A stretch of 41,246 nucleotides of DNA from an uncultured Burkholderiales bacterium (GTDB lineage Bacteria; Pseudomonadota; Gammaproteobacteria; Burkholderiales; Eutrophovitaceae): positions 1 through 41,246 of the forward strand of contig CBFIFN010000003.1 in assembly GCA_965661885.1 (NCBI GenBank), written 5' to 3'. Shown piece by piece: positions 26,083 through 34,607 of this stretch (positions are counted from its first letter, which is position 1; the number at the start of each line of letters is the position of its first letter). A model generated the notes under the pieces. It was not told where the DNA came from. It did not search any database and worked only from the letters and a program-made list of their open reading frames with translations. A program made the translations under genes and the position numbers.

Positions 26083-26868
26083 ATGACATTTTTATTCAAA
26101 CTCACCAAGTCTGTTCTTGTCGGATTTGCTGCTCTGACATTAGTTGCGTGCCAAACAACTAACAAGAGCGCCGAGACCGTGGAGGAATTTTCGGATAACT
26201 TTGAATACATTGAAGCTGCGGCTCAGGCTGAGCAAGAGCAGCTTCAGCAGGAGCTGGAGCAAGCCCAGAGTGATCAAGAAAAGCTTCAATCAGAAGCTGA
26301 GCAACTTCAGGCTGAGGCAGATAAAGCTCGCGAAGCGCAAGCTTTGGCTGAGGAGAGAGCTCTTGCTGAAGAGCAAGCCAGAGCAGCGGCTGAAGAAAGA
26401 GCTTTGAAAGAAGCTGCGGCCAGAGCCAAAGCGCAAGCCGAGGCCGATGCTTTGAAAGCTGAGGCCGATGCTTTGAAAGCTGAGGCAGAAGCGGCTTCAT
26501 CCGGGGAGGCTGGCGTGGTGAACGATGTCGTGCCTCAGGGAAAGCCAACTGATTCGGTTTATTTTGATTTTGATAAGAGTTTTATAGTCCCTAAATTTGA
26601 TGATGTGATCACTTCGCACGCTGAGTACTTGCGTGCCAATCCCGATCTGAATGTTGAGATACAAGGAAATTGTGATGAGCGGGGTAGTCGAGAATACAAT
26701 ATCGGTCTCGGCAACAGACGTGCTTTGGCGGTGAAGGCTGCGCTCGAAATACTTGGGATCGAAGGTGGACGTATCACAATTACTAGCTTTGGTTCAGAGA
26801 AGCCGGTAGCAATGGGGCATGATGAGTCCAGTTGGCAGCAAAATCGTCGCGCTGATTTTGCATACTAG
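26083..26868 (+). CDS. Pal/OmpA-C peptidoglycan-binding lipoprotein with a long Ala/Glu/Gln helical insert
   Basis: Lipobox LVAC (Cys23). C-terminal Pal domain motifs VYFDFDKS, QGNCDERGSREYNIGLGNRRA, SFGSEKP and QNRRA. Residues ~41-138 are A/E/Q/K-rich with no Pro or Gly. Confidence 0.88.
   Translation: MTFLFKLTKSVLVGFAALTLVACQTTNKSAETVEEFSDNFEYIEAAAQAEQEQLQQELEQAQSDQEKLQSEAEQLQAEADKAREAQALAEERALAEEQARAAAEERALKEAAARAKAQAEADALKAEADALKAEAEAASSGEAGVVNDVVPQGKPTDSVYFDFDKSFIVPKFDDVITSHAEYLRANPDLNVEIQGNCDERGSREYNIGLGNRRALAVKAALEILGIEGGRITITSFGSEKPVAMGHDESSWQQNRRADFAY
26440..26486 (+). repeat. Perfect 21-bp tandem repeat (2.2 copies) encoding the heptad EADALKA
   Basis: GAGGCCGATGCTTTGAAAGCT at 26440-26460 and 26461-26481, followed by GAGGC. 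Confidence 0.95.
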
Positions 26869-26915: not shown

Positions 26916-26954
26916 GTTTGAGAAAACTTTTTCGATAGGGTACATTTGGTAGTC

Positions 26955-28316
26955 ATGAAAAGAGCCATATTGACGGTGCTTCTAGTTTGTTTGGGCGCTA
27001 CGATAGTGTTTGCTCAAAATAGGCCGGGTGCCCCTATTGAGACCGCTAAAAAAATTAGAGATGCTCGTCCAAGCTTCAAGGAGTTAGTGAATGAAGTGGA
27101 TCGTCTCAAGCAGGATCTTTTAAAGATAGAAATCGCGATCACCGAAGCTAAAAACAGCATCACTGAAAACAATAATGGACGGTTGCAAGATCGGAACGAA
27201 GATCAGCAAGGAATCATAGAGCTTTTGGGGGATATTAGCCAAATTCGAGTGGATTTGGTCTCCCACACCGGTTCCTTGCAGTATTTAGAAGGGGAACAAA
27301 GCCAGTTCAAGGTGCTTCAAATAGAGGCCAGAAACTTGCTCGAGGCACTCCAAAATGAATTCGAGACCAGAGGTAAAAAATTACTTGATTTAAAGCGTCA
27401 GTTGGACGTTGCGGATGACGGCTTGACAGACCTCGGAACTATCATCGAAGATTCTGACACGTTAACCGAGAAGCAGATCGTTAAACTCAGTGGCCGGCTT
27501 GATGTGCTTTCAGGCAATATTAAAGATCTGCGGTCGCAATATGTCGAGAAGATGGTGTTTGAAGCAAGAGAAAAAGAGTTGCTCATTCGAATAAATAACC
27601 TTAAAGCGAATAGCCAAGCTTCAAAAGAGCGCATGAAGCTCGCTGAGGCACGTATCCTGGTGCTGGAGCAGCAGATCGTTGAAAACTCGGGACAACTAGA
27701 AAGGTTGAACAGCGCCTCAGCGGTTAATGCAACTCAAATCGTAAGAATCGACGGTCAACTGTTGGAGCTTGATCGTGTCTCCAATGAAGTTGAGCTACTT
27801 ACGCAAGAACGGTTTGCGCTGAGTCAAAAGCTAGAGGCCCTTTCTTATTTACCTCAACGGTTAGATGAAATTTCATCTGGTATCAATGCAGTAGAAATGG
27901 AATTAATTCGCTTGGACGGGGATTTGAAGGATTATGGCGATGTCTCAGAGCTAAATTCTGAAGATTTGAAACTACTCATTAAACGTCTGGCTGAAACGCG
28001 CGTTGCCCAAATATCAAAGGTGGGTACGGATGAGTTGACATCGATTTTGAAACGGATAGACGAATTGGAAATTATTCAACCAGATCTTGCGGACCAACAA
28101 GCCTTGAGAGGTCGTGTTGATGAGCTGTATCGCCGACAAACACTGATCACTGAGGAGATGAATCGAGTGAATTTAATGGAGGAAAAATTGATCTTGCTGG
28201 AGACGAGGATCAATGAACGCATGTTTTTGGGACCTGACGGGGACGAGCGAAGCGAAGAGCAGCGGGAACAAAAGCAGCAGAAACAAGAGGGTGTTTCTGG
28301 CTCCAACTATCAATAG
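26955..28316 (+). CDS. Secreted long coiled-coil hypothetical protein
   Basis: Signal peptide MKRAILTVLLVCLGATIVFA. The remainder is L/I/E/Q/R-rich with heptad periodicity; no catalytic domain recognised. Confidence 0.8.
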   Translation: MKRAILTVLLVCLGATIVFAQNRPGAPIETAKKIRDARPSFKELVNEVDRLKQDLLKIEIAITEAKNSITENNNGRLQDRNEDQQGIIELLGDISQIRVDLVSHTGSLQYLEGEQSQFKVLQIEARNLLEALQNEFETRGKKLLDLKRQLDVADDGLTDLGTIIEDSDTLTEKQIVKLSGRLDVLSGNIKDLRSQYVEKMVFEAREKELLIRINNLKANSQASKERMKLAEARILVLEQQIVENSGQLERLNSASAVNATQIVRIDGQLLELDRVSNEVELLTQERFALSQKLEALSYLPQRLDEISSGINAVEMELIRLDGDLKDYGDVSELNSEDLKLLIKRLAETRVAQISKVGTDELTSILKRIDELEIIQPDLADQQALRGRVDELYRRQTLITEEMNRVNLMEEKLILLETRINERMFLGPDGDERSEEQREQKQQKQEGVSGSNYQ

Positions 28317-28526: not shown

Positions 28527-30629
28527 ATGCGTTCTAAACTAGTAATTTTTGGTCTTGTATGGCTTGCGGTGGTCGCAGTTTCGATTTTGTTTCCTGCTCA
28601 CGCAAAAGATCATGTCGTAGATGCTCAACACACCACCCTTGAGTTGATTTCTGAATTCGATACCGTTGCACCGGGTCAAGAGTTTTATTTGGGTGTGCGT
28701 GTGACACTTGACGAAGGTTGGCACATATATTGGAGGAATCCTGGTGATACCGGATTACCTACTCGGGTTACTTGGAATGCCCCCGACGAGCTAGACATAG
28801 GCCCTATACTTTGGCCTGCTCCAATCAGCTTTAGATTAGAGAACTTCATTAATTTCGGCTATGAGGGTGCGGTCACGTTTCCCTTTCTCGTTAAGGTGTC
28901 CGGTTCTACAACATTGGGTACAACCCTGGTTGAGGCTAATGTAAGTTGGTTGATATGTAAGGATTTGTGTATTCCTGGGGATGCACAGCTCTTGATGGAT
29001 CTAAATGTGGGAAAGACTCCGATGGCCAGTTTGGAGGAGAAGCATTTAACGACGGTAGTCAGTAAGTTGCCAATGGAGGCGGGGGATAATGGATTCCGGT
29101 CTGTAGTGACACAGGATGGTCGATGGAGCCTCGATTTGAGTTATTTAGATTTTCCGGTGTCGTCCGCACAATTTTTCCCGGACTATAGCGACACGATTAG
29201 TTACGACGCACAGCAAACGTTAGAGAGAAACTCAAATGGTTTGAGTTTGAGAGGAGAACTATCTGCGGACTACAAAAACTCAGTGAATGAATTTGCGGGT
29301 ACGCTGGTCGTGGAAAACGAGGTCAATCGAGAGCTGCAAAGTTATGACTTTACTCGGGTGCCTGAGCAGAAAATTGCACTTGAAAGATCGATTTCCTTTC
29401 AAGAGGAGTCGCAGACGGTTTTCAGTCTATGGCTTGCCATCTGTTTTGCTTTAATCGGTGGTGTGATACTGAATTTCATGCCTTGCGTTCTCCCCGTCTT
29501 AGCTATCAAGTTAATCTCTCTGATTGAACATGGCGAGCAATCGCGTAGGTCGCGATTTCGTGAGACTTTTTTGTTTTCTGCTGGAGTGGTGTTGACGTTT
29601 TGCGTAATCGGGGTAACGCTCATAATGCTTAGGTCAGCAGGGGAGCAGATTGGTTGGGGTTTTCAACTCCAGTCGCCGGAAACGGTTCTCACTTTAATTA
29701 TTTTATTTTTTGCTCTGTCATTGAACATGTCTGGTTTGTTTGAAATTGGGACTAGCCTGCAACGATTTGGTGGAATGAACAATACTTTCGGTCGTTGGTC
29801 TTCCTTCGCCTCTGGGGCTCTCGTCACGATTATCGCGACACCCTGCACCGCGCCCTTTATGGGTGCTGCTATTGGGTTTTCAATTGCGCAAGGAACTTTG
29901 GCGAGCATGCTTACTTTTTTTGCACTTGGAGTGGGTATGGCGACACCGTACGCGCTGATCTCGTTGCGCCCTGGATTGCTTAAATGGTTACCAAAGCCTG
30001 GTGAGTGGATGAATACGTTGAAGAACCTCTTGAGTTTGCCGCTATATCTTACTGTTGTTTGGCTTATCTGGGTGCTGGGCCAGCAGACAAATATCCACAT
30101 TGTGAGTCAAGTTCTTGTTGTCATGGTTTTTACTGGATTATCTGCATGGGCTATTGGAAAAATCCAGTATGGACAAGTCTCTCGCATCCATGCTTGGAGA
30201 GGTCTTATTGCAGTCAGCGTTCTGATATCGGCCCTAGGGCTTGCCTATGTCTTGACTAGCTTCGATAACTCGCCAGGTGAAAATAATGCGAATATTGATT
30301 GGGAAGTATGGTCGGCTGACTCGGTTCTTGAGGCCCGCAAAGATGGTCAATCTGTGTTCGTTGACTATACGGCTGCTTGGTGTATCACCTGTCAGGTGAA
30401 TAAGGCGCTGGTGCTAGATGATCAAGATGTTCTGAGGATGTTTCAAGAAAACAAAGTACTCATGTTCAGAGCGGATTGGACCTCTCGGGACCCGAGCATA
30501 ACGCAGTCACTAACTGGCCTTGGGCGATCAGGAGTGCCCGTGTACGCTTACTATCCCCCAGATAATGGGCCTCCGTTATTATTGTCGGAGATACTGACTA
30601 AGAAAGAGATATTCGCACTGTTCGACTAG
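28527..30629 (+). CDS. dsbD: Thiol:disulfide interchange protein, DsbD/ScsB-like
   Basis: N-domain GWHIYWRNPGD..P and ICKDLCIP, transmembrane NFMPCVLPV and ATPCTAPF, thioredoxin domain DYTAAWCITC. Confidence 0.88.
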   Translation: MRSKLVIFGLVWLAVVAVSILFPAHAKDHVVDAQHTTLELISEFDTVAPGQEFYLGVRVTLDEGWHIYWRNPGDTGLPTRVTWNAPDELDIGPILWPAPISFRLENFINFGYEGAVTFPFLVKVSGSTTLGTTLVEANVSWLICKDLCIPGDAQLLMDLNVGKTPMASLEEKHLTTVVSKLPMEAGDNGFRSVVTQDGRWSLDLSYLDFPVSSAQFFPDYSDTISYDAQQTLERNSNGLSLRGELSADYKNSVNEFAGTLVVENEVNRELQSYDFTRVPEQKIALERSISFQEESQTVFSLWLAICFALIGGVILNFMPCVLPVLAIKLISLIEHGEQSRRSRFRETFLFSAGVVLTFCVIGVTLIMLRSAGEQIGWGFQLQSPETVLTLIILFFALSLNMSGLFEIGTSLQRFGGMNNTFGRWSSFASGALVTIIATPCTAPFMGAAIGFSIAQGTLASMLTFFALGVGMATPYALISLRPGLLKWLPKPGEWMNTLKNLLSLPLYLTVVWLIWVLGQQTNIHIVSQVLVVMVFTGLSAWAIGKIQYGQVSRIHAWRGLIAVSVLISALGLAYVLTSFDNSPGENNANIDWEVWSADSVLEARKDGQSVFVDYTAAWCITCQVNKALVLDDQDVLRMFQENKVLMFRADWTSRDPSITQSLTGLGRSGVPVYAYYPPDNGPPLLLSEILTKKEIFALFD

Positions 30630-30691
30630 GGAGTCGCGCTTTTTTGTAACTGGTCAGTGTGAGCTACTCTCAGATATTGAGGTAACGCAGA

Positions 30692-31663
30692 TTGGAACGA
30701 ACAGAACGTTTTTATAAAATTGACCGCTTACTTCGAGAGAATAGATCAGTCTCCTTAGAAAGATTTCTTGAGGAACTGGCTATATCCAAAGCTACGTTTA
30801 AGCGTGACATAGAGTACATGAGAGATCGACTCGGGGCTCCTATTAGCTGGGATCGAGGCCTGCGGGGGTATCTTTTTGATCACGATCTGGATGATCTGCC
30901 GGCTTATGAGCTGCCGGGTATATGGTTTAATCAATCGGAAATCTTTGCTCTCTTATCGATGGAATCTTTGCTAAGTCAAATTCAACCTGGACTATTGGGG
31001 CAACGGCTAGACCCATTAAAGCAAAAGTTACATGATTTGATGGAGGTAGGTGAGTACTCCGTTGATGTGATAAAGAATCGAATCAAAATCCTCAACATGG
31101 GCTCTCGCAGTCGTAACATTAAACATTTCGAGGTAATTGCTCTATCTTTAATGAAGCAGTCACAGCTTGAGATTACTTACTATGTTCGCACTCGAGACGA
31201 ATTGACCACACGGTCAGTTTCACCGCAAAGAATCATTTACTACAGGGATAATTGGTACTTGGATGCATGGTGCCACGTTGCAAATAGTGTGAGAAGTTTT
31301 TCGCTTGATGCAGTGCAATCCGCGGTGCTAAGCGAAAATGATGCTTTACGATGTGATGAGCAAGAATTAGACGCGGTGCTAGGTTCGGGATATGGCATTT
31401 TTTCTGGGACTGATCTCCAATGGGCTAAATTGAAATTTCGACCAGAACGCGCTAAATGGGTTTCTCTAGAGGAATGGCATCCATCTCAGCGAACACAATT
31501 CGATCATGAGGGGTACTTCATCTTAGAAATCCCCTACAGCGAGGAGCATGAGCTGGTAATGGATATTTTACGTTTTGGTCCCGATGTTGAGGTGCTGGGG
31601 CCGGCATCATTGCGAAGTGTGGTTATACATAAAATGACTGAAATGTCGAAGATATATAAATAA
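30692..31663 (+). CDS. HTH-WYL-WCX transcriptional regulator (YafY/PafBC/DriD-like)
   Basis: N-terminal wHTH (ISKATFKRDIEYMRD), WYL domain (RSVSPQRI.YYRDNWYLDAWCH...RSFSLD) and WCX (DILRFGPDVEVLGP..LR). TTG start with SD GAGGT at 30680-30684. Confidence 0.92.
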   Translation: MERTERFYKIDRLLRENRSVSLERFLEELAISKATFKRDIEYMRDRLGAPISWDRGLRGYLFDHDLDDLPAYELPGIWFNQSEIFALLSMESLLSQIQPGLLGQRLDPLKQKLHDLMEVGEYSVDVIKNRIKILNMGSRSRNIKHFEVIALSLMKQSQLEITYYVRTRDELTTRSVSPQRIIYYRDNWYLDAWCHVANSVRSFSLDAVQSAVLSENDALRCDEQELDAVLGSGYGIFSGTDLQWAKLKFRPERAKWVSLEEWHPSQRTQFDHEGYFILEIPYSEEHELVMDILRFGPDVEVLGPASLRSVVIHKMTEMSKIYK

Positions 31664-31714
31664 GCTTCTGATTTTTAACTTTTTAATTTTTTTTTAAGGA
31701 TTATGATTGGAGAG

Positions 31715-31729
31715 GCTCACCTAGTGAGC
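31715..31729. promoter_or_regulatory. Palindromic operator candidate GCTCAC-CTA-GTGAGC
   Basis: Perfect 6-bp arms in an AT-rich intergenic region right after the WYL gene, with 17 nt between its end and a -10-like TACCTT (31747-31752). Assignment to the WYL protein is inference. Confidence 0.6.
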
Positions 31730-31782
31730 TAGTACTGGGCGCAAACTACCTTCAACCTAAATAATTAATTTGGAGGTTAGTC

Positions 31783-32745
31783 ATGGAACAGCTTAGTTTT
31801 TTTCAAAATAATCTATCTAATCAGAGATTACGCCGTAGCGTCTCCAGTGTTAGAGATCGTGTGGATCGCACGGTGTCAAATACTAAGGGCGCTAAAACGT
31901 CTAGATTGCCTCACTTAGAAATACCGTTTCCGCGCTCTGGCTCTATTTCGAAGGCTCGCGCATCCTTTTCGAATGGAAAAAACTCAGCACTCAATAGCCG
32001 TGCAACGGTTTCATCATCGAGTGAACAGGCTACGTTCATTGATCGCTTAGGGACTGATAACTCAATCAAAAAACTGATTCGAGGTCGTCAATTTATACCG
32101 CATGAAAATATTCTGAATACAATTGAACGTGCGTTAGTCGCGCTAAGAATAGACCCAGACGAGGTTGATATATTGATTGACCGTGGCGCATATAGCGCTC
32201 AAATGTCCTTGGTGATCTCATTACCCGCTTACTACGACTATGACCCTGGCTATATGGATGCATTTAAACTTCAACTTGTTTTTCACAATTGTGTGAGTCG
32301 CGGTGGACTTCGGGTGCTTGCACGATGGTGTCAAGAGGGAACAGGAGTGGTTTGCTCCGTGGGGGTCACGCAACTCAATGCCAGTCTCGCGCACAGAATA
32401 CCAGCTAGAGAGGAGCAGATTTTGCCCACCTTTAGGCGGGCCATAGATCTCGCTAATGACGACCGTACCCGGTTTGGGAAATGGCTAAAGCAAGACGTAA
32501 AAGATGATTTAGTTCAAACTTGGACGTCAGAGTCAGTTCGTCGAATGTGGGGTACGCGAGGAAAAAATGAAATACAGAAAAAAATTAAAATGCAGAATAG
32601 TAAGCAGACGGTTTTCAATCTTTTAATAACCGTAGCTGAATACTCTATTAAGACGAAAGATATTCTGAAACAATGTGACCAGGTGGTTGAGGGTGCCGTT
32701 TTGATACGTTCGCTTCTTAAGAAAAAGGCTACAACATCCGTTTAA
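31783..32745 (+). CDS. Hypothetical protein, possibly a divergent DUF932-like domain with an N-terminal QLSFF motif
   Basis: Strong SD (GGAGG) and ATG. The segments QFIPHENILNTIERAL, YSAQMSLVI, DPG..FKLQLVFHN and LRVLARW resemble DUF932-type proteins as I recall them; the family call is tentative. Confidence 0.6.
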   Translation: MEQLSFFQNNLSNQRLRRSVSSVRDRVDRTVSNTKGAKTSRLPHLEIPFPRSGSISKARASFSNGKNSALNSRATVSSSSEQATFIDRLGTDNSIKKLIRGRQFIPHENILNTIERALVALRIDPDEVDILIDRGAYSAQMSLVISLPAYYDYDPGYMDAFKLQLVFHNCVSRGGLRVLARWCQEGTGVVCSVGVTQLNASLAHRIPAREEQILPTFRRAIDLANDDRTRFGKWLKQDVKDDLVQTWTSESVRRMWGTRGKNEIQKKIKMQNSKQTVFNLLITVAEYSIKTKDILKQCDQVVEGAVLIRSLLKKKATTSV

Positions 32746-32870: not shown

Positions 32871-33944
32871 ATGCTCATCTTCCGTCAATTAGTTGATCAA
32901 CAGTCTTCCACCTACAGTTATTTGTTGGGCGATCCTGAATCGAAAGAATGTGTGTTGATTGATCCTGTTTTCGAGCAATCGGCACGTGACCGGGCGATGC
33001 TTGATGAAATGGGCTTGCAATTAGTTGCCACCATTGATACGCACGTCCACGCTGACCACGTCACCGGTTCTTGGTTGTTGCACAACAGGTTGAAGAGTGA
33101 AATCGTTGTTTCTAGGGACAGCAGAGCCGAAGGTGCTGGGCGGTATGTTCAACATGGCGATACTGTAGGTTTTGGTGAGCGATCCCTTTCAGTCAGAGCC
33201 ACGCCTGGGCATACAAGCGGTTGTATTTCTTTGGTCCTTGATGATCAAACCATGGTTTTTAGCGGAGACTGCTTGCTTATTCGAGGCACTGGCCGAACAG
33301 ATTTCCAAGAGGGAAATCCGAAATTGATGTTCCGTTCGATCCAGGATCAAATTTTCACGTTGCCTAACTCCTGTTTAGTCTATCCTGGGCATGACTACAG
33401 AGGCTTAACTGTTACAAGCGTAGCGGAAGAAAAATTTTTTAATCCAAGGTTGGGTGGTGAGGCTAACGTAGAGGACTTTTGCGGGTATATGGATAACTTG
33501 AAGTTGCCACACCCTAAACAGATTAATCGCGCAGTACCAGCGAATTTGAAGTGTGGCCAGCCTAACGGCCACCTCGCTGAGTTGGAAGATCAAAATTGGG
33601 CCGACCTTACCTACAGTTTTGCGGGTGCTTGGGACATAAAGCCATCGTCCTTAGAGGAAGTCTTAAGTATTGTTAATGTTATAGACGTCAGAGAGGCAAG
33701 TGAATTTGAGGGTCCGCTAGGTCGTATCTCGACTGCTCGTTTAATGCCCCTAGGCCAATTGGAAGAGCTGAGTAAAAATCTTGATCCTGATGTTCCTATT
33801 GTCGCCGTTTGCCGCTCTGGAGCACGATCAACCCAGGCGATTTCGTATCTCAAGGCGCTTGGATTTACAAAAATCGCCAACTTAGCCGGTGGTATGTTGC
33901 GTTGGAACGTTGAGGGCTATCCTGTTTTAGGTGGTTCAGACTGA
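32871..33944 (+). CDS. Persulfide dioxygenase (ETHE1-like MBL fold)-rhodanese fusion
   Basis: IFRQL....SSTYSYL, THVHADHVTG, TPGHT.GC, GRTDFQ, YPGHDY.G and VPANL.CG, plus C-terminal rhodanese IDVRE...CRSGARS..LAGGM..W. Confidence 0.9.
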   Translation: MLIFRQLVDQQSSTYSYLLGDPESKECVLIDPVFEQSARDRAMLDEMGLQLVATIDTHVHADHVTGSWLLHNRLKSEIVVSRDSRAEGAGRYVQHGDTVGFGERSLSVRATPGHTSGCISLVLDDQTMVFSGDCLLIRGTGRTDFQEGNPKLMFRSIQDQIFTLPNSCLVYPGHDYRGLTVTSVAEEKFFNPRLGGEANVEDFCGYMDNLKLPHPKQINRAVPANLKCGQPNGHLAELEDQNWADLTYSFAGAWDIKPSSLEEVLSIVNVIDVREASEFEGPLGRISTARLMPLGQLEELSKNLDPDVPIVAVCRSGARSTQAISYLKALGFTKIANLAGGMLRWNVEGYPVLGGSD

Positions 33945-33989: not shown

Positions 33990-34607
33990 CTATAGCTGCG
34001 CTTCGGCTTTTTTGGTTCTTAGGAAAGCCGGTCGAGAGGTCAGTCGCCGCAAGTACGAGGCTATAGAATCTGGAAATGGTTCTTCGACGTGCTTCGTGTA
34101 AGCGGTTAGTGCGATCCCCGTCATAATATCCGCTCCAGAGAATTTTTCTCCGAGCAACCACTCTTTGTCACCCAAAAACACGTTCAAGGCTTCTAAGCAA
34201 GCATTTGCACGCTTCTTGAATTCACTAATTACCTCTTGGTTGTGCGTGTTGGGAAATGCTCGCTTGTGTCTGATGATTTCGGAAATCGACGACGCGAAGG
34301 TTGCTTCTGCAAACCAGCTCCATTCAAGGTATTTCATGTATAACGGATCATTGATTTCAGGCATCAGTCTTCCGTTTCCGTACTTTGTTATAAGGTAGTG
34401 GACCATTGCCCCGCTCTCACACATCGTTGTGTCCCCATCTTGCATGGCGGGAACTTTACCGATTGGGCTGATTCGAAGGAATTCATTACTGAATCGATAG
34501 TTAGTGGAAAAGTCAACAAATTGAAGTGTGTACTGCAGATTTAATTCTTCGCAAACCCAAATAGGTCTGAGGCCTCTAGTGTTTGTAAAATGGTATATTT
34601 TTATCAC
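33990..34607 (-). CDS. Glutathione S-transferase family protein
   Basis: SPIGKVPAM.DG...ESGA, FSGADI and RPAF; GTG start with GGAGG SD. Confidence 0.9.
   Translation of the reverse strand: MIKIYHFTNTRGLRPIWVCEELNLQYTLQFVDFSTNYRFSNEFLRISPIGKVPAMQDGDTTMCESGAMVHYLITKYGNGRLMPEINDPLYMKYLEWSWFAEATFASSISEIIRHKRAFPNTHNQEVISEFKKRANACLEALNVFLGDKEWLLGEKFSGADIMTGIALTAYTKHVEEPFPDSIASYLRRLTSRPAFLRTKKAEAQL

Follow-up and report, generated by a model that had tools for sequence, protein, structure and literature searches.

The window analyzed here is a 41,246-nucleotide stretch of contig CBFIFN010000003.1 from an uncultured Burkholderiales bacterium known from metagenome-assembled genomes (MAGs), and it encodes a transcriptional regulator with a probable winged helix-turn-helix (wHTH) domain and with WYL and WCX domains, followed on the same strand by a 320-amino-acid (aa) protein that stands as a distant relative of the DUF932 family. 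We tentatively favor reading the two genes and the short gap between them as a unit of regulator, operator and target: a member of a large WYL orthogroup would control the divergent DUF932 protein through a conserved 17-bp palindrome. A WYL regulator with an adjacent target is already a known arrangement; what the locus offers are two testable leads, an operator sequence and a peptide that resembles a clamp-binding motif, and in a gene pair of uncultured bacteria their value is that of a lead and not of a result. WYL regulators are increasingly recognized as main LexA-independent sensors of damage and infection, and for the orthogroup in question neither an operator nor a target has been described, which makes the palindrome a testable operator candidate.

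The original prediction had proposed a LexA-independent DNA-damage or anti-mobile-element module, in which a nucleic-acid-sensing switch drives a domesticated DNA-processing protein derived from a mobile element. Its description of the locus is borne out. Both open reading frames (ORFs) lie where it had placed them (Table 1), the regulator gene is intact, the gap measures 119 bp and contains one palindrome (GCTCAC-CTA-GTGAGC at 31715-31729), the 320-aa gene has a strong Shine-Dalgarno sequence, and no mobile-element genes flank the pair: a Pfam scan of 37 window ORFs returned housekeeping families only, among them NhaB, an HrpA-type helicase, prolyl-tRNA synthetase, DsbD, a fusion of metallo-beta-lactamase (MBL) and rhodanese domains, glutathione S-transferase (GST) and FKBP. 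The G+C content of the pair, 0.41 to 0.46, is like that of its surroundings. The functional labels given to the module fared less well, as described below.

The regulator matches the Pfam models WYL (E 2e-17, 63.4 bits versus a 21.8-bit cut-off) and WCX (E 1.4e-14, 54.6 bits versus a 23.9-bit cut-off), and its N-terminal match to HTH_11 falls just under the 25-bit cut-off (E 3.9e-5, 23.9 bits), with HTH_DeoR and Mga likewise sub-threshold. Against PADLOC it finds generic WYL models only (1.9e-35), and the solved structures closest to it are PafBC/PafC (E 3e-13), followed by DriD. Its TTG start is backed by a GTG counterpart at the same position in one related locus (L002). The regulator orthogroup, a betaproteobacterial one, comprises at least 7316 clusters at E ≤ 1e-40 (of 8000 scored candidates), the best 120 listed being 50 to 95% identical, and carries the source names of YafY-family or WYL proteins of Burkholderiales, Usitatibacter and Sulfuricella. 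The family of the 320-aa protein, in contrast, amounts to 21 proteins including the query (word-indexed search, 2624 candidates), whose few named members all come from marine Betaproteobacteria or Burkholderiales MAGs. This disparity suggests that the regulator is old and widespread and that the target is its lineage-specific partner.

The palindrome is conserved well beyond the window. For comparison, a scan of genome contigs provided six loci from six species-level genomes, which together with the window make up the seven loci referred to hereafter. The pattern GGCTCAY-N3-RTGAGCY occurs once per locus in 6/6 related loci and nowhere else there, and it is likewise the sole such site in the window. 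Within the window GCTCAC-CTA-GTGAGC has one match versus 0.16 expected, a count reached in 15 of 100 shuffles and thus within chance, so the palindrome is considered real because of its conservation across loci and not because of window statistics. In the seven-locus alignment the gap is freely variable in its 5' half, whereas the last 70 bp are kept and consist of the palindrome, GGGCGCAMACTRYC, ATAAT and GGAGGT. The center of the palindrome (31722) lies 61 bp 5' of the start codon of the 320-aa gene. A half-site-like GTGAGCTAC (30659-30667), similar to the right half of the palindrome and 25 bp before the regulator start, was considered as an autoregulatory site and rejected, as it is absent there in the six related loci.

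The same site recurs beside a more distant orthologue. In a plasmid collection, the regulator has 22 matching records at E ≤ 1e-10. Four Variovorax replicons of 0.8 Mb, nearly identical to one another, lead this list, each with a full-length WYL orthologue of 47.7% identity; none of the others exceeds 28.4%. In the Variovorax locus, GGCTCAT-AGC-GTGAGCC is situated in a divergent intergenic region, with the regulator start 51 bp away on one side and a divergent 139-aa gene 58 bp away on the other; the 13 kb of this locus contain no second such site (0.07 expected), and the string A.ACTACCT follows the palindrome toward the divergent gene with the same spacing as in the window. A profile that recovers its positive controls, YfjQ and two DUF932 proteins of Vibrionaceae plasmids, detects no DUF932 gene in this locus. 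The presence of one site beside orthologous regulators with unrelated neighbors points to the regulator's cognate DNA site rather than a hairpin peculiar to the target mRNA, and from this comparison we propose that the palindrome is the operator of the WYL regulator. The Variovorax orthologue (Variovorax sp. WDL1 replicon NZ_LR594690.1, 3714-7703) lies in an accessory region with mazEF directly downstream; two unknown genes and an acyltransferase_3 gene diverge from the shared operator, and CoiA-family, DUF2924 and SHOCT genes are found nearby.

The position of the palindrome can be related to a candidate promoter. If CAAACT (31742-31747) serves as the -10 element, the site would extend from about -40 to -24, in a promoter that has no -35 hexamer. 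Such a placement is reminiscent of the PafBC and SiwR sites at -26, as given in section 12 of the SiwR paper, and would suit a repressor equally. The intergenic region has no Rfam match at E ≤ 1.

The 320-aa protein has no Pfam match even at E ≤ 10, so none over the PF06067 gathering score, no match in PADLOC-DB 2.0 at E ≤ 1, and matches of chance level only in PHROGs and NCBIfam; its description as an orphan thus holds for these four libraries. More sensitive comparisons connect it to DUF932. With phmmer, run exhaustively against 1.84 billion representatives, 38 proteins match at E ≤ 1e-3, over residues 98 to 262. Of the 37 non-self matches, 34 were scanned with Pfam (three fragments of 88 to 169 aa were omitted), and PF06067 is above cut-off in 29 of these 34, while the five closest relatives lack it, like the query. 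AlphaFold2, given the alignment of the 21 sequences, yields a model in which residues 100 to 320 are confident, with block means of 75 to 94 for the predicted local distance difference test (pLDDT), and residues 1 to 13 and 32 to 100 are disordered. A Foldseek search of this model against BFVD, a set of predicted phage structures, returned 34 matches at E ≤ 1e-3 (best 1.5e-6), of which ten bear the names DUF932 (7), TIGR03299 (2) or DUF945 (1), with template modeling (TM) scores of 0.38 to 0.50; the AlphaFold-Foldseek check suggested for this gene therefore recovered phage DUF932 models. The ESM Atlas feature search placed 29 of 30 neighbors in DUF932 clusters (score 0.96), a result that the tool itself grades as weak at this protein's recognition value. 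In a global alignment with 24 DUF932 relatives, H107, N169, W182, H204, W234 and W256-G257 are shared, with H107, N169, W182, H204 and W256-G257 close to invariant, and the NSVD and CSNG motifs of the relatives correspond to NC(V/L)S and QEGTG in the 320-aa protein. On the combined ground of sequence homology and modeled fold, the protein is a remote DUF932 homologue below the detection of the Pfam model, so its earlier designation as DUF932-like stands as remote homology, seen by phmmer, Foldseek and language-model neighbors, and fails for the Pfam DUF932 model itself, which gives no match.

It resembles the DUF932/TIGR03299 proteins of phages and plasmids in sharing the same core fold, as judged by Foldseek on predicted structures, as well as a chain of sequence homology, and differs from them in being chromosomal, syntenic and single copy and in having a clade-specific N-terminal module. 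Against the PDB, Foldseek found nothing at E ≤ 1e-3 for the model; DnaK, CorA and E2 enzyme folds came up with a best E of 0.015 and TM of 0.1 to 0.2 and were discarded as noise, and the 21-member family profile found nothing below E 0.087 among PDB sequences. A tblastn search of plasmid and phage collections gave no match to the protein, and longer, fused forms of it were not found, which is weak evidence. No functional study of DUF932, YfjQ, YafZ, TIGR03299 or UPF0380 was found in the open-access literature searched. With no solved-fold match and no described DUF932 function in that literature, the assignment as a DNA-processing protein is left without support.

The WYL orthologue lies directly 5' of the orthologue of the 320-aa gene in 6/6 related genomes, in a syntenic block of >10 kb that comprises genes for an OmpA-like protein, a 456-aa unknown, DsbD, the WYL regulator, the target, the MBL-rhodanese fusion, GST, FKBP, NIPSNAP and an AMP-ligase. 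Identity to the window proteins across the six loci is 79.5 to 82.6% for the regulator and 50.9 to 52.8% for the target; the neighboring genes fall between these values, and the 456-aa unknown alone lies below them (32 to 38%). The ratio of nonsynonymous to synonymous substitution rates (dN/dS), taken from the less saturated pairs, is 0.03 to 0.07 for the regulator and 0.13 to 0.23 for the target, so that the 320-aa ORF is a real, constrained gene under purifying selection, although it evolves 2 to 4 times faster than the regulator. The conserved pairing of regulator and effector that had been anticipated is thus found in 7/7 loci, but in one syntenic clade only, and the Variovorax orthologue (48%) has the operator without a DUF932 gene. 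The best explanation for this distribution is that the pair is a vertically inherited chromosomal unit outside mobile elements.

The N terminus of the target carries the second lead. MEQLSF is present in all 17 proteins that reach the N terminus (of the 21 family members), including members only 31 to 40% identical, and it is followed by F in 14 of them, by L in 2 and by S in 1; the most distant member has MEQLSF behind an 18-residue extension that is probably mis-called. Codons 2 (GAA/GAG) and 4 (CTT/CTA/CTC/CTG) of this segment vary synonymously among loci, indicating that selection acts on the peptide. The roughly 90 residues after it are poorly conserved and predicted to be disordered, except for a basic helix. 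This predicted helix, residues 14 to 32 (window 31783-31880), reads LRRx(I/V)xx(I/V)RDRVD and is kept in members down to 40% identity. The predicted build of the target is therefore an invariant MEQLSFF, a conserved basic helix, a disordered linker of about 70 residues and then the DUF932 core. In bacteria, the consensus for binding to the beta sliding clamp is given as QLxLF in a passage of PMC4549789, and the N-terminal clamp motif of Hda as residues 6 to 11, QLSLPL, in a passage of PMC5397184. The target has Q-L-S-hydrophobic-F at its very N terminus followed by a flexible stretch, and the position recalls that of the motif in Hda; it has Phe rather than Leu at position 4, it has no homology to Hda, and the resemblance is one of motif only. 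QLSFF occupies residues 3 to 7 in a segment of pLDDT <50 and agrees with 4/4 consensus positions only if Phe is allowed for Leu at position 4. The pattern QLx[LFMI]F has a single occurrence among the 104 window ORFs of at least 60 aa, namely at this N terminus, and QMELPY, QPSLF and QLSLF appear near the N termini of a few distant DUF932 relatives. The window contains no dnaN gene.

Taken as a mechanism, a dimer of the WYL regulator would bind the 17-bp palindrome GGCTCAY-N3-RTGAGCY; the bound site would cover the -35 region of a promoter without a recognizable -35 hexamer, provided that CAAACT is the -10 element; and the regulator would switch transcription of the 320-aa gene, up or down, on ligand binding by its WYL domain. 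Our best guess for the QLSFF peptide, from motif likeness and conservation, is that it would dock the target on the beta sliding clamp, whereupon the DUF932 core may act at the replication fork or on clamps that stay behind on DNA. The fuller version of this account, a phage/plasmid DUF932 protein domesticated as a clamp-docking factor on the core chromosome of a marine Burkholderiales lineage, under a WYL regulator whose pocket lost the ssDNA (single-stranded DNA) arginines and which would sense another signal, is in our view quite improbable as a whole. If the clamp-docking part were true, it would be the first functional handle on DUF932, directed to the replisome or the clamp; a chromosomal, single-copy member with a candidate clamp-binding peptide would be a clean entry point to a family of phages, plasmids and integrative elements. 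If the regulatory part were true, thousands of uncharacterized WYL regulators would gain a new ligand class and the operator GGCTCAY-N3-RTGAGCY.

Several observations weigh against this interpretation. The whole housekeeping block is syntenic, so the conserved adjacency of the two genes is not independent evidence and is weak for a functional link. The recurrence of the operator rests on one independent locus, as the four Variovorax replicons are near-identical. A consensus scan of the gap found neither a sigma-70 promoter nor a terminator after the regulator gene, and read-through from the regulator gene is therefore possible. If ATAAT (31761-31765) were the -10 element instead, the site would be centered near -48. 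For the target, hhalign of the 21-member family profile against Escherichia coli YfjQ was not significant, although a broader profile, built on the global alignment with relatives, does find YfjQ (4.3e-6 in a small set). As for the peptide, the likeness of QLSFF to a clamp-binding motif was noticed post hoc and involves Phe for Leu at position 4, and YfjQ and a majority of the distant DUF932 relatives are without the motif.

Which signal, then, would such a regulator read? The nearest precedents suggest ssDNA. The actinobacterial activators PafBC and SiwR, and DriD of Caulobacter, share the wHTH-WYL-WCX architecture predicted for our regulator, and PafBC/PafC and DriD are its nearest solved relatives; in the parts of PMC9186387, PMC11804915, PMC11662680 and the SiwR paper that concern ligands, the characterized members of this architecture bind ssDNA. 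DriD binds a palindrome (in a passage of PMC9186387), as is proposed here, and the SiwR paper describes control of a gene directly adjacent to siwR and, for SiwR and PafBC, a site near or over -35/-26 in a promoter without a -35 hexamer, to which the placement conjectured here would correspond. The locus might accordingly encode a LexA-independent damage switch of the DriD/PafBC/SiwR type, in which ssDNA arising from damage would be bound by the WYL domain and the regulator would activate a DUF932-like repair or checkpoint factor. A site over -35/-26 without a -35 hexamer would fit PafBC/SiwR-type activation, and a clamp-binding-like motif would suit a damage-induced factor.

The ligand pocket speaks for another answer. 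We aligned 118 orthologues, namely the proteins of the window and of Variovorax plus 116 of the best 120 listed (4 were dropped for length), in which W188-Y189-L190 is invariant or nearly so. According to a passage of PMC11804915, changing PafC R201/R204 (PafB R211/R214) to alanine abolishes ssDNA binding. These essential arginines align with S204 and A207 of the regulator, and across the orthologues position 204 is A in 66, S in 51 and G in 1, and position 207 is A in 92, C in 16, G in 4 and T in 3. Among the conserved ssDNA contacts of DriD, which in a passage of PMC9186387 include R176, R178, Y192, R204 and R207, three of five are kept (R178, Y192 and R204 as R174, Y189 and R201), which favors a ssDNA switch, whereas R176 and R207 align with T172 (T in 106, S in 6, Q in 6) and S204; DriD Y168 falls outside the alignment. 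The RWHVR motif of CapW/BrxR, described in part of PMC11662680, corresponds to NWYLD, with N187 and D191 each in 117 of the 118. Judged from this alignment, the pocket is unlike that of any characterized ssDNA sensor, and the ligand is probably held otherwise than ssDNA is in PafBC, DriD and CapW. The orthogroup has other invariant arginines (R166, R174, R180, R185 and R201), so the protein may still bind nucleic acids. Other WYL ligands exist, and a WYL regulator that senses cyclic di-GMP has reportedly been found, which counts against ssDNA as the default signal. The target, moreover, is a DUF932-family protein and not recA, didA or a DinB/YfiT-like enzyme, the site is absent from any recA, lexA or repair gene in the window and six loci, and nothing in these sequences hints at a regulon or places a site ahead of the regulator gene itself, all in difference to PafBC, SiwR and DriD. 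The replaced ssDNA-binding arginines lower the DNA-damage reading, which we consider unlikely, and both the nucleic-acid-sensing switch and the LexA-independent damage label of the original prediction are weakened, as the arginines of PafC R201/R204, DriD R176/R207 and CapW RWHVR are represented by Ser/Ala, Ala, Thr, Asn and Asp across the 118 orthologues. The altered pocket raises the question of whether all such WYL regulators sense ssDNA.

Quite unlikely, by our judgment, is an anti-phage or anti-mobile-element module in which a BrxR/CapW-like repressor silences a costly DUF932-derived effector until infection. The known systems give it some ground. DUF932 is mostly a family of phages, plasmids and integrative elements, WYL repressors control defense loci (in a passage of PMC11662680), and the target evolves faster than the regulator by the margin given above. 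The Variovorax orthologue sits next to MazEF in an accessory region, and a Variovorax DUF932 gene of an integrated plasmid came under strong selection after phage exposure, according to part of a preprint (bioRxiv 10.1101/2025.06.20.660599). BrxR and CapW resemble our locus in the predicted three-domain architecture, in a palindromic operator, here a proposed one, and in a layout that places the regulator gene immediately 5' of its target on the same strand. Their operator, however, lies upstream of the regulator gene in an autoregulated layout, whereas here it lies downstream; the regulator lacks the arginines of RWHVR, having NWYLD instead; and the effector matches no known defense protein in PADLOC. 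In 7/7 genomes the effector is a lone gene at a fixed place among syntenic housekeeping genes, of ordinary G+C content and outside any variable island, and its dN/dS, well below 1, carries no sign of an arms race. The anti-mobile-element label is therefore unsupported, with no PADLOC match for the effector and no island or mobile-element context.

WYL and DUF932 genes do co-occur in mobile modules. In the CP4-57 element of E. coli K-12, yfjQ (DUF932, 3.4e-52) is directly followed by yfjR (HTH plus WYL, 25.0 bits versus the 21.8-bit cut-off), and in enterobacterial plasmid loci of the YfjR type (n = 4, 3-kb flanks) the DUF932 gene is downstream on the same strand in 2/4. Our pair shares with them DUF932 and WYL-domain genes that are adjacent or no more than 3 kb apart on the same strand. 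It differs in that YfjR is a shorter HTH-WYL protein (233 aa) without a WCX match, the two genes stand in the opposite order in K-12, an N-terminal QLSFF extension is missing from YfjQ, and theirs are mobile elements with GTPase, antirestriction, RadC and CbtA-type genes. In the part of PMC8464067 that covers YfjR, no peaks are reported for it by chromatin immunoprecipitation with exonuclease digestion (ChIP-exo). The four plasmid loci and CP4-57 display a recurrent co-directional module of GTPase, short HTH-WYL, small unknowns, DUF905, DUF932, antirestriction, RadC and CbtA-type toxin genes, in which the WYL gene comes directly after the GTPase gene in 3/4 plasmid loci and the DUF932 gene shifts its place. 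DUF932 genes on Vibrio and Aliivibrio plasmids have only hypothetical neighbors and no WYL gene among them.

The two genes might also be mere neighbors, with the regulator acting elsewhere and the 320-aa gene expressed on its own as a remnant of an old mobile element. The disparity in size between the two families, the Variovorax orthologue without a DUF932 neighbor and the dependence of the six adjacencies on synteny would all agree with this. Yet the window and the six loci each have a single copy of the palindrome, directly before the 320-aa gene, and purifying selection together with an invariant N-terminal motif means that the gene is no decaying relic, so we regard coincidental adjacency as very unlikely.

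Least probable of all is that the palindrome and the next 60 conserved nucleotides act in the mRNA, where a 5' hairpin together with an anti-Shine-Dalgarno helix, in the leader or intercistronic spacer of the 320-aa gene, would govern translation or transcript stability with no involvement of the WYL protein. RNAalifold does predict a hairpin of 7 bp along with a helix ACCUYC:GGAGGU, the paired fraction of cells is 97.9% versus 27 to 46% when the partners are slid, all hairpin variation is wobble-compatible (G-C/G-U; C-G/U-G/U-A) and no terminator was found between the two genes, but no pair has changed on both sides, 51 and 344 of 500 shuffles give values as high as those observed (covariation not significant), no Rfam family matches, and the Variovorax palindrome stands in a divergent promoter region before unrelated genes, as fits a protein site. 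Anti-Shine-Dalgarno pairing could, however, exist alongside the operator of the favored regulator-operator-target unit, the features of which are collected in Table 1.

Table 1. Features of the regulator-target locus in window coordinates
Feature	Position	Strand	Basis
wHTH-WYL-WCX regulator gene	30692..31663	+	ORF, TTG start, 323 aa
Intergenic region, 119 bp	31664..31782	.	Seven-locus alignment; 5' half AT-rich and variable, 3' 70 bp (31713-31782) conserved
Palindrome GGCTCAC-CTA-GTGAGCT, proposed operator of the WYL regulator	31714..31730	.	17 bp, conserved in 7/7 loci and beside the Variovorax orthologue
Conserved box CAAACTACCT, candidate -10 region (nAnACT)	31742..31751	+	20 nt from palindrome center; spacing and A.ACTACCT string common to the Variovorax divergent promoter
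Shine-Dalgarno GGAGG, 6 nt 5' of ATG	31772..31776	+	Read directly; invariant in 7/7 loci
Divergent DUF932-family protein gene (P0001), 320 aa	31783..32745	+	ORF, ATG start
Codons 3-7, QLSFF, candidate beta-sliding-clamp-binding motif	31789..31803	+	Motif resemblance, conservation
DUF932-like core, residues 100-320: one helix, five-stranded sheet, four long helices (predicted)	32080..32742	+	AlphaFold2, Foldseek, phmmer

Genes of thiol and sulfur redox metabolism flank the pair, with DsbD at 28527-30629, the MBL-fold and rhodanese fusion, which is persulfide-dioxygenase-like, at 32871-33944 and the glutathione S-transferase at 33990-34607. A tie between these genes and the WYL regulator is conceivable by analogy with the stress enzymes adjacent to SiwR; a scan of the window found the palindrome absent from them. 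Two genes of the syntenic block are split into two ORFs each in related MAGs, the AMP-ligase orthologue in L001 (6003-7581, minus strand) and the OmpA-like orthologue in L004 (124-1192, plus strand), for which a frameshift, pseudogenization or an assembly error could account. In the window, a 456-aa ORF without a Pfam match (26946-28316, plus strand) adjoins the OmpA-family gene (26083-26868), and it is the fastest-evolving gene of the block, with 32 to 38% identity in four loci versus 58 to 86% for its neighbors.

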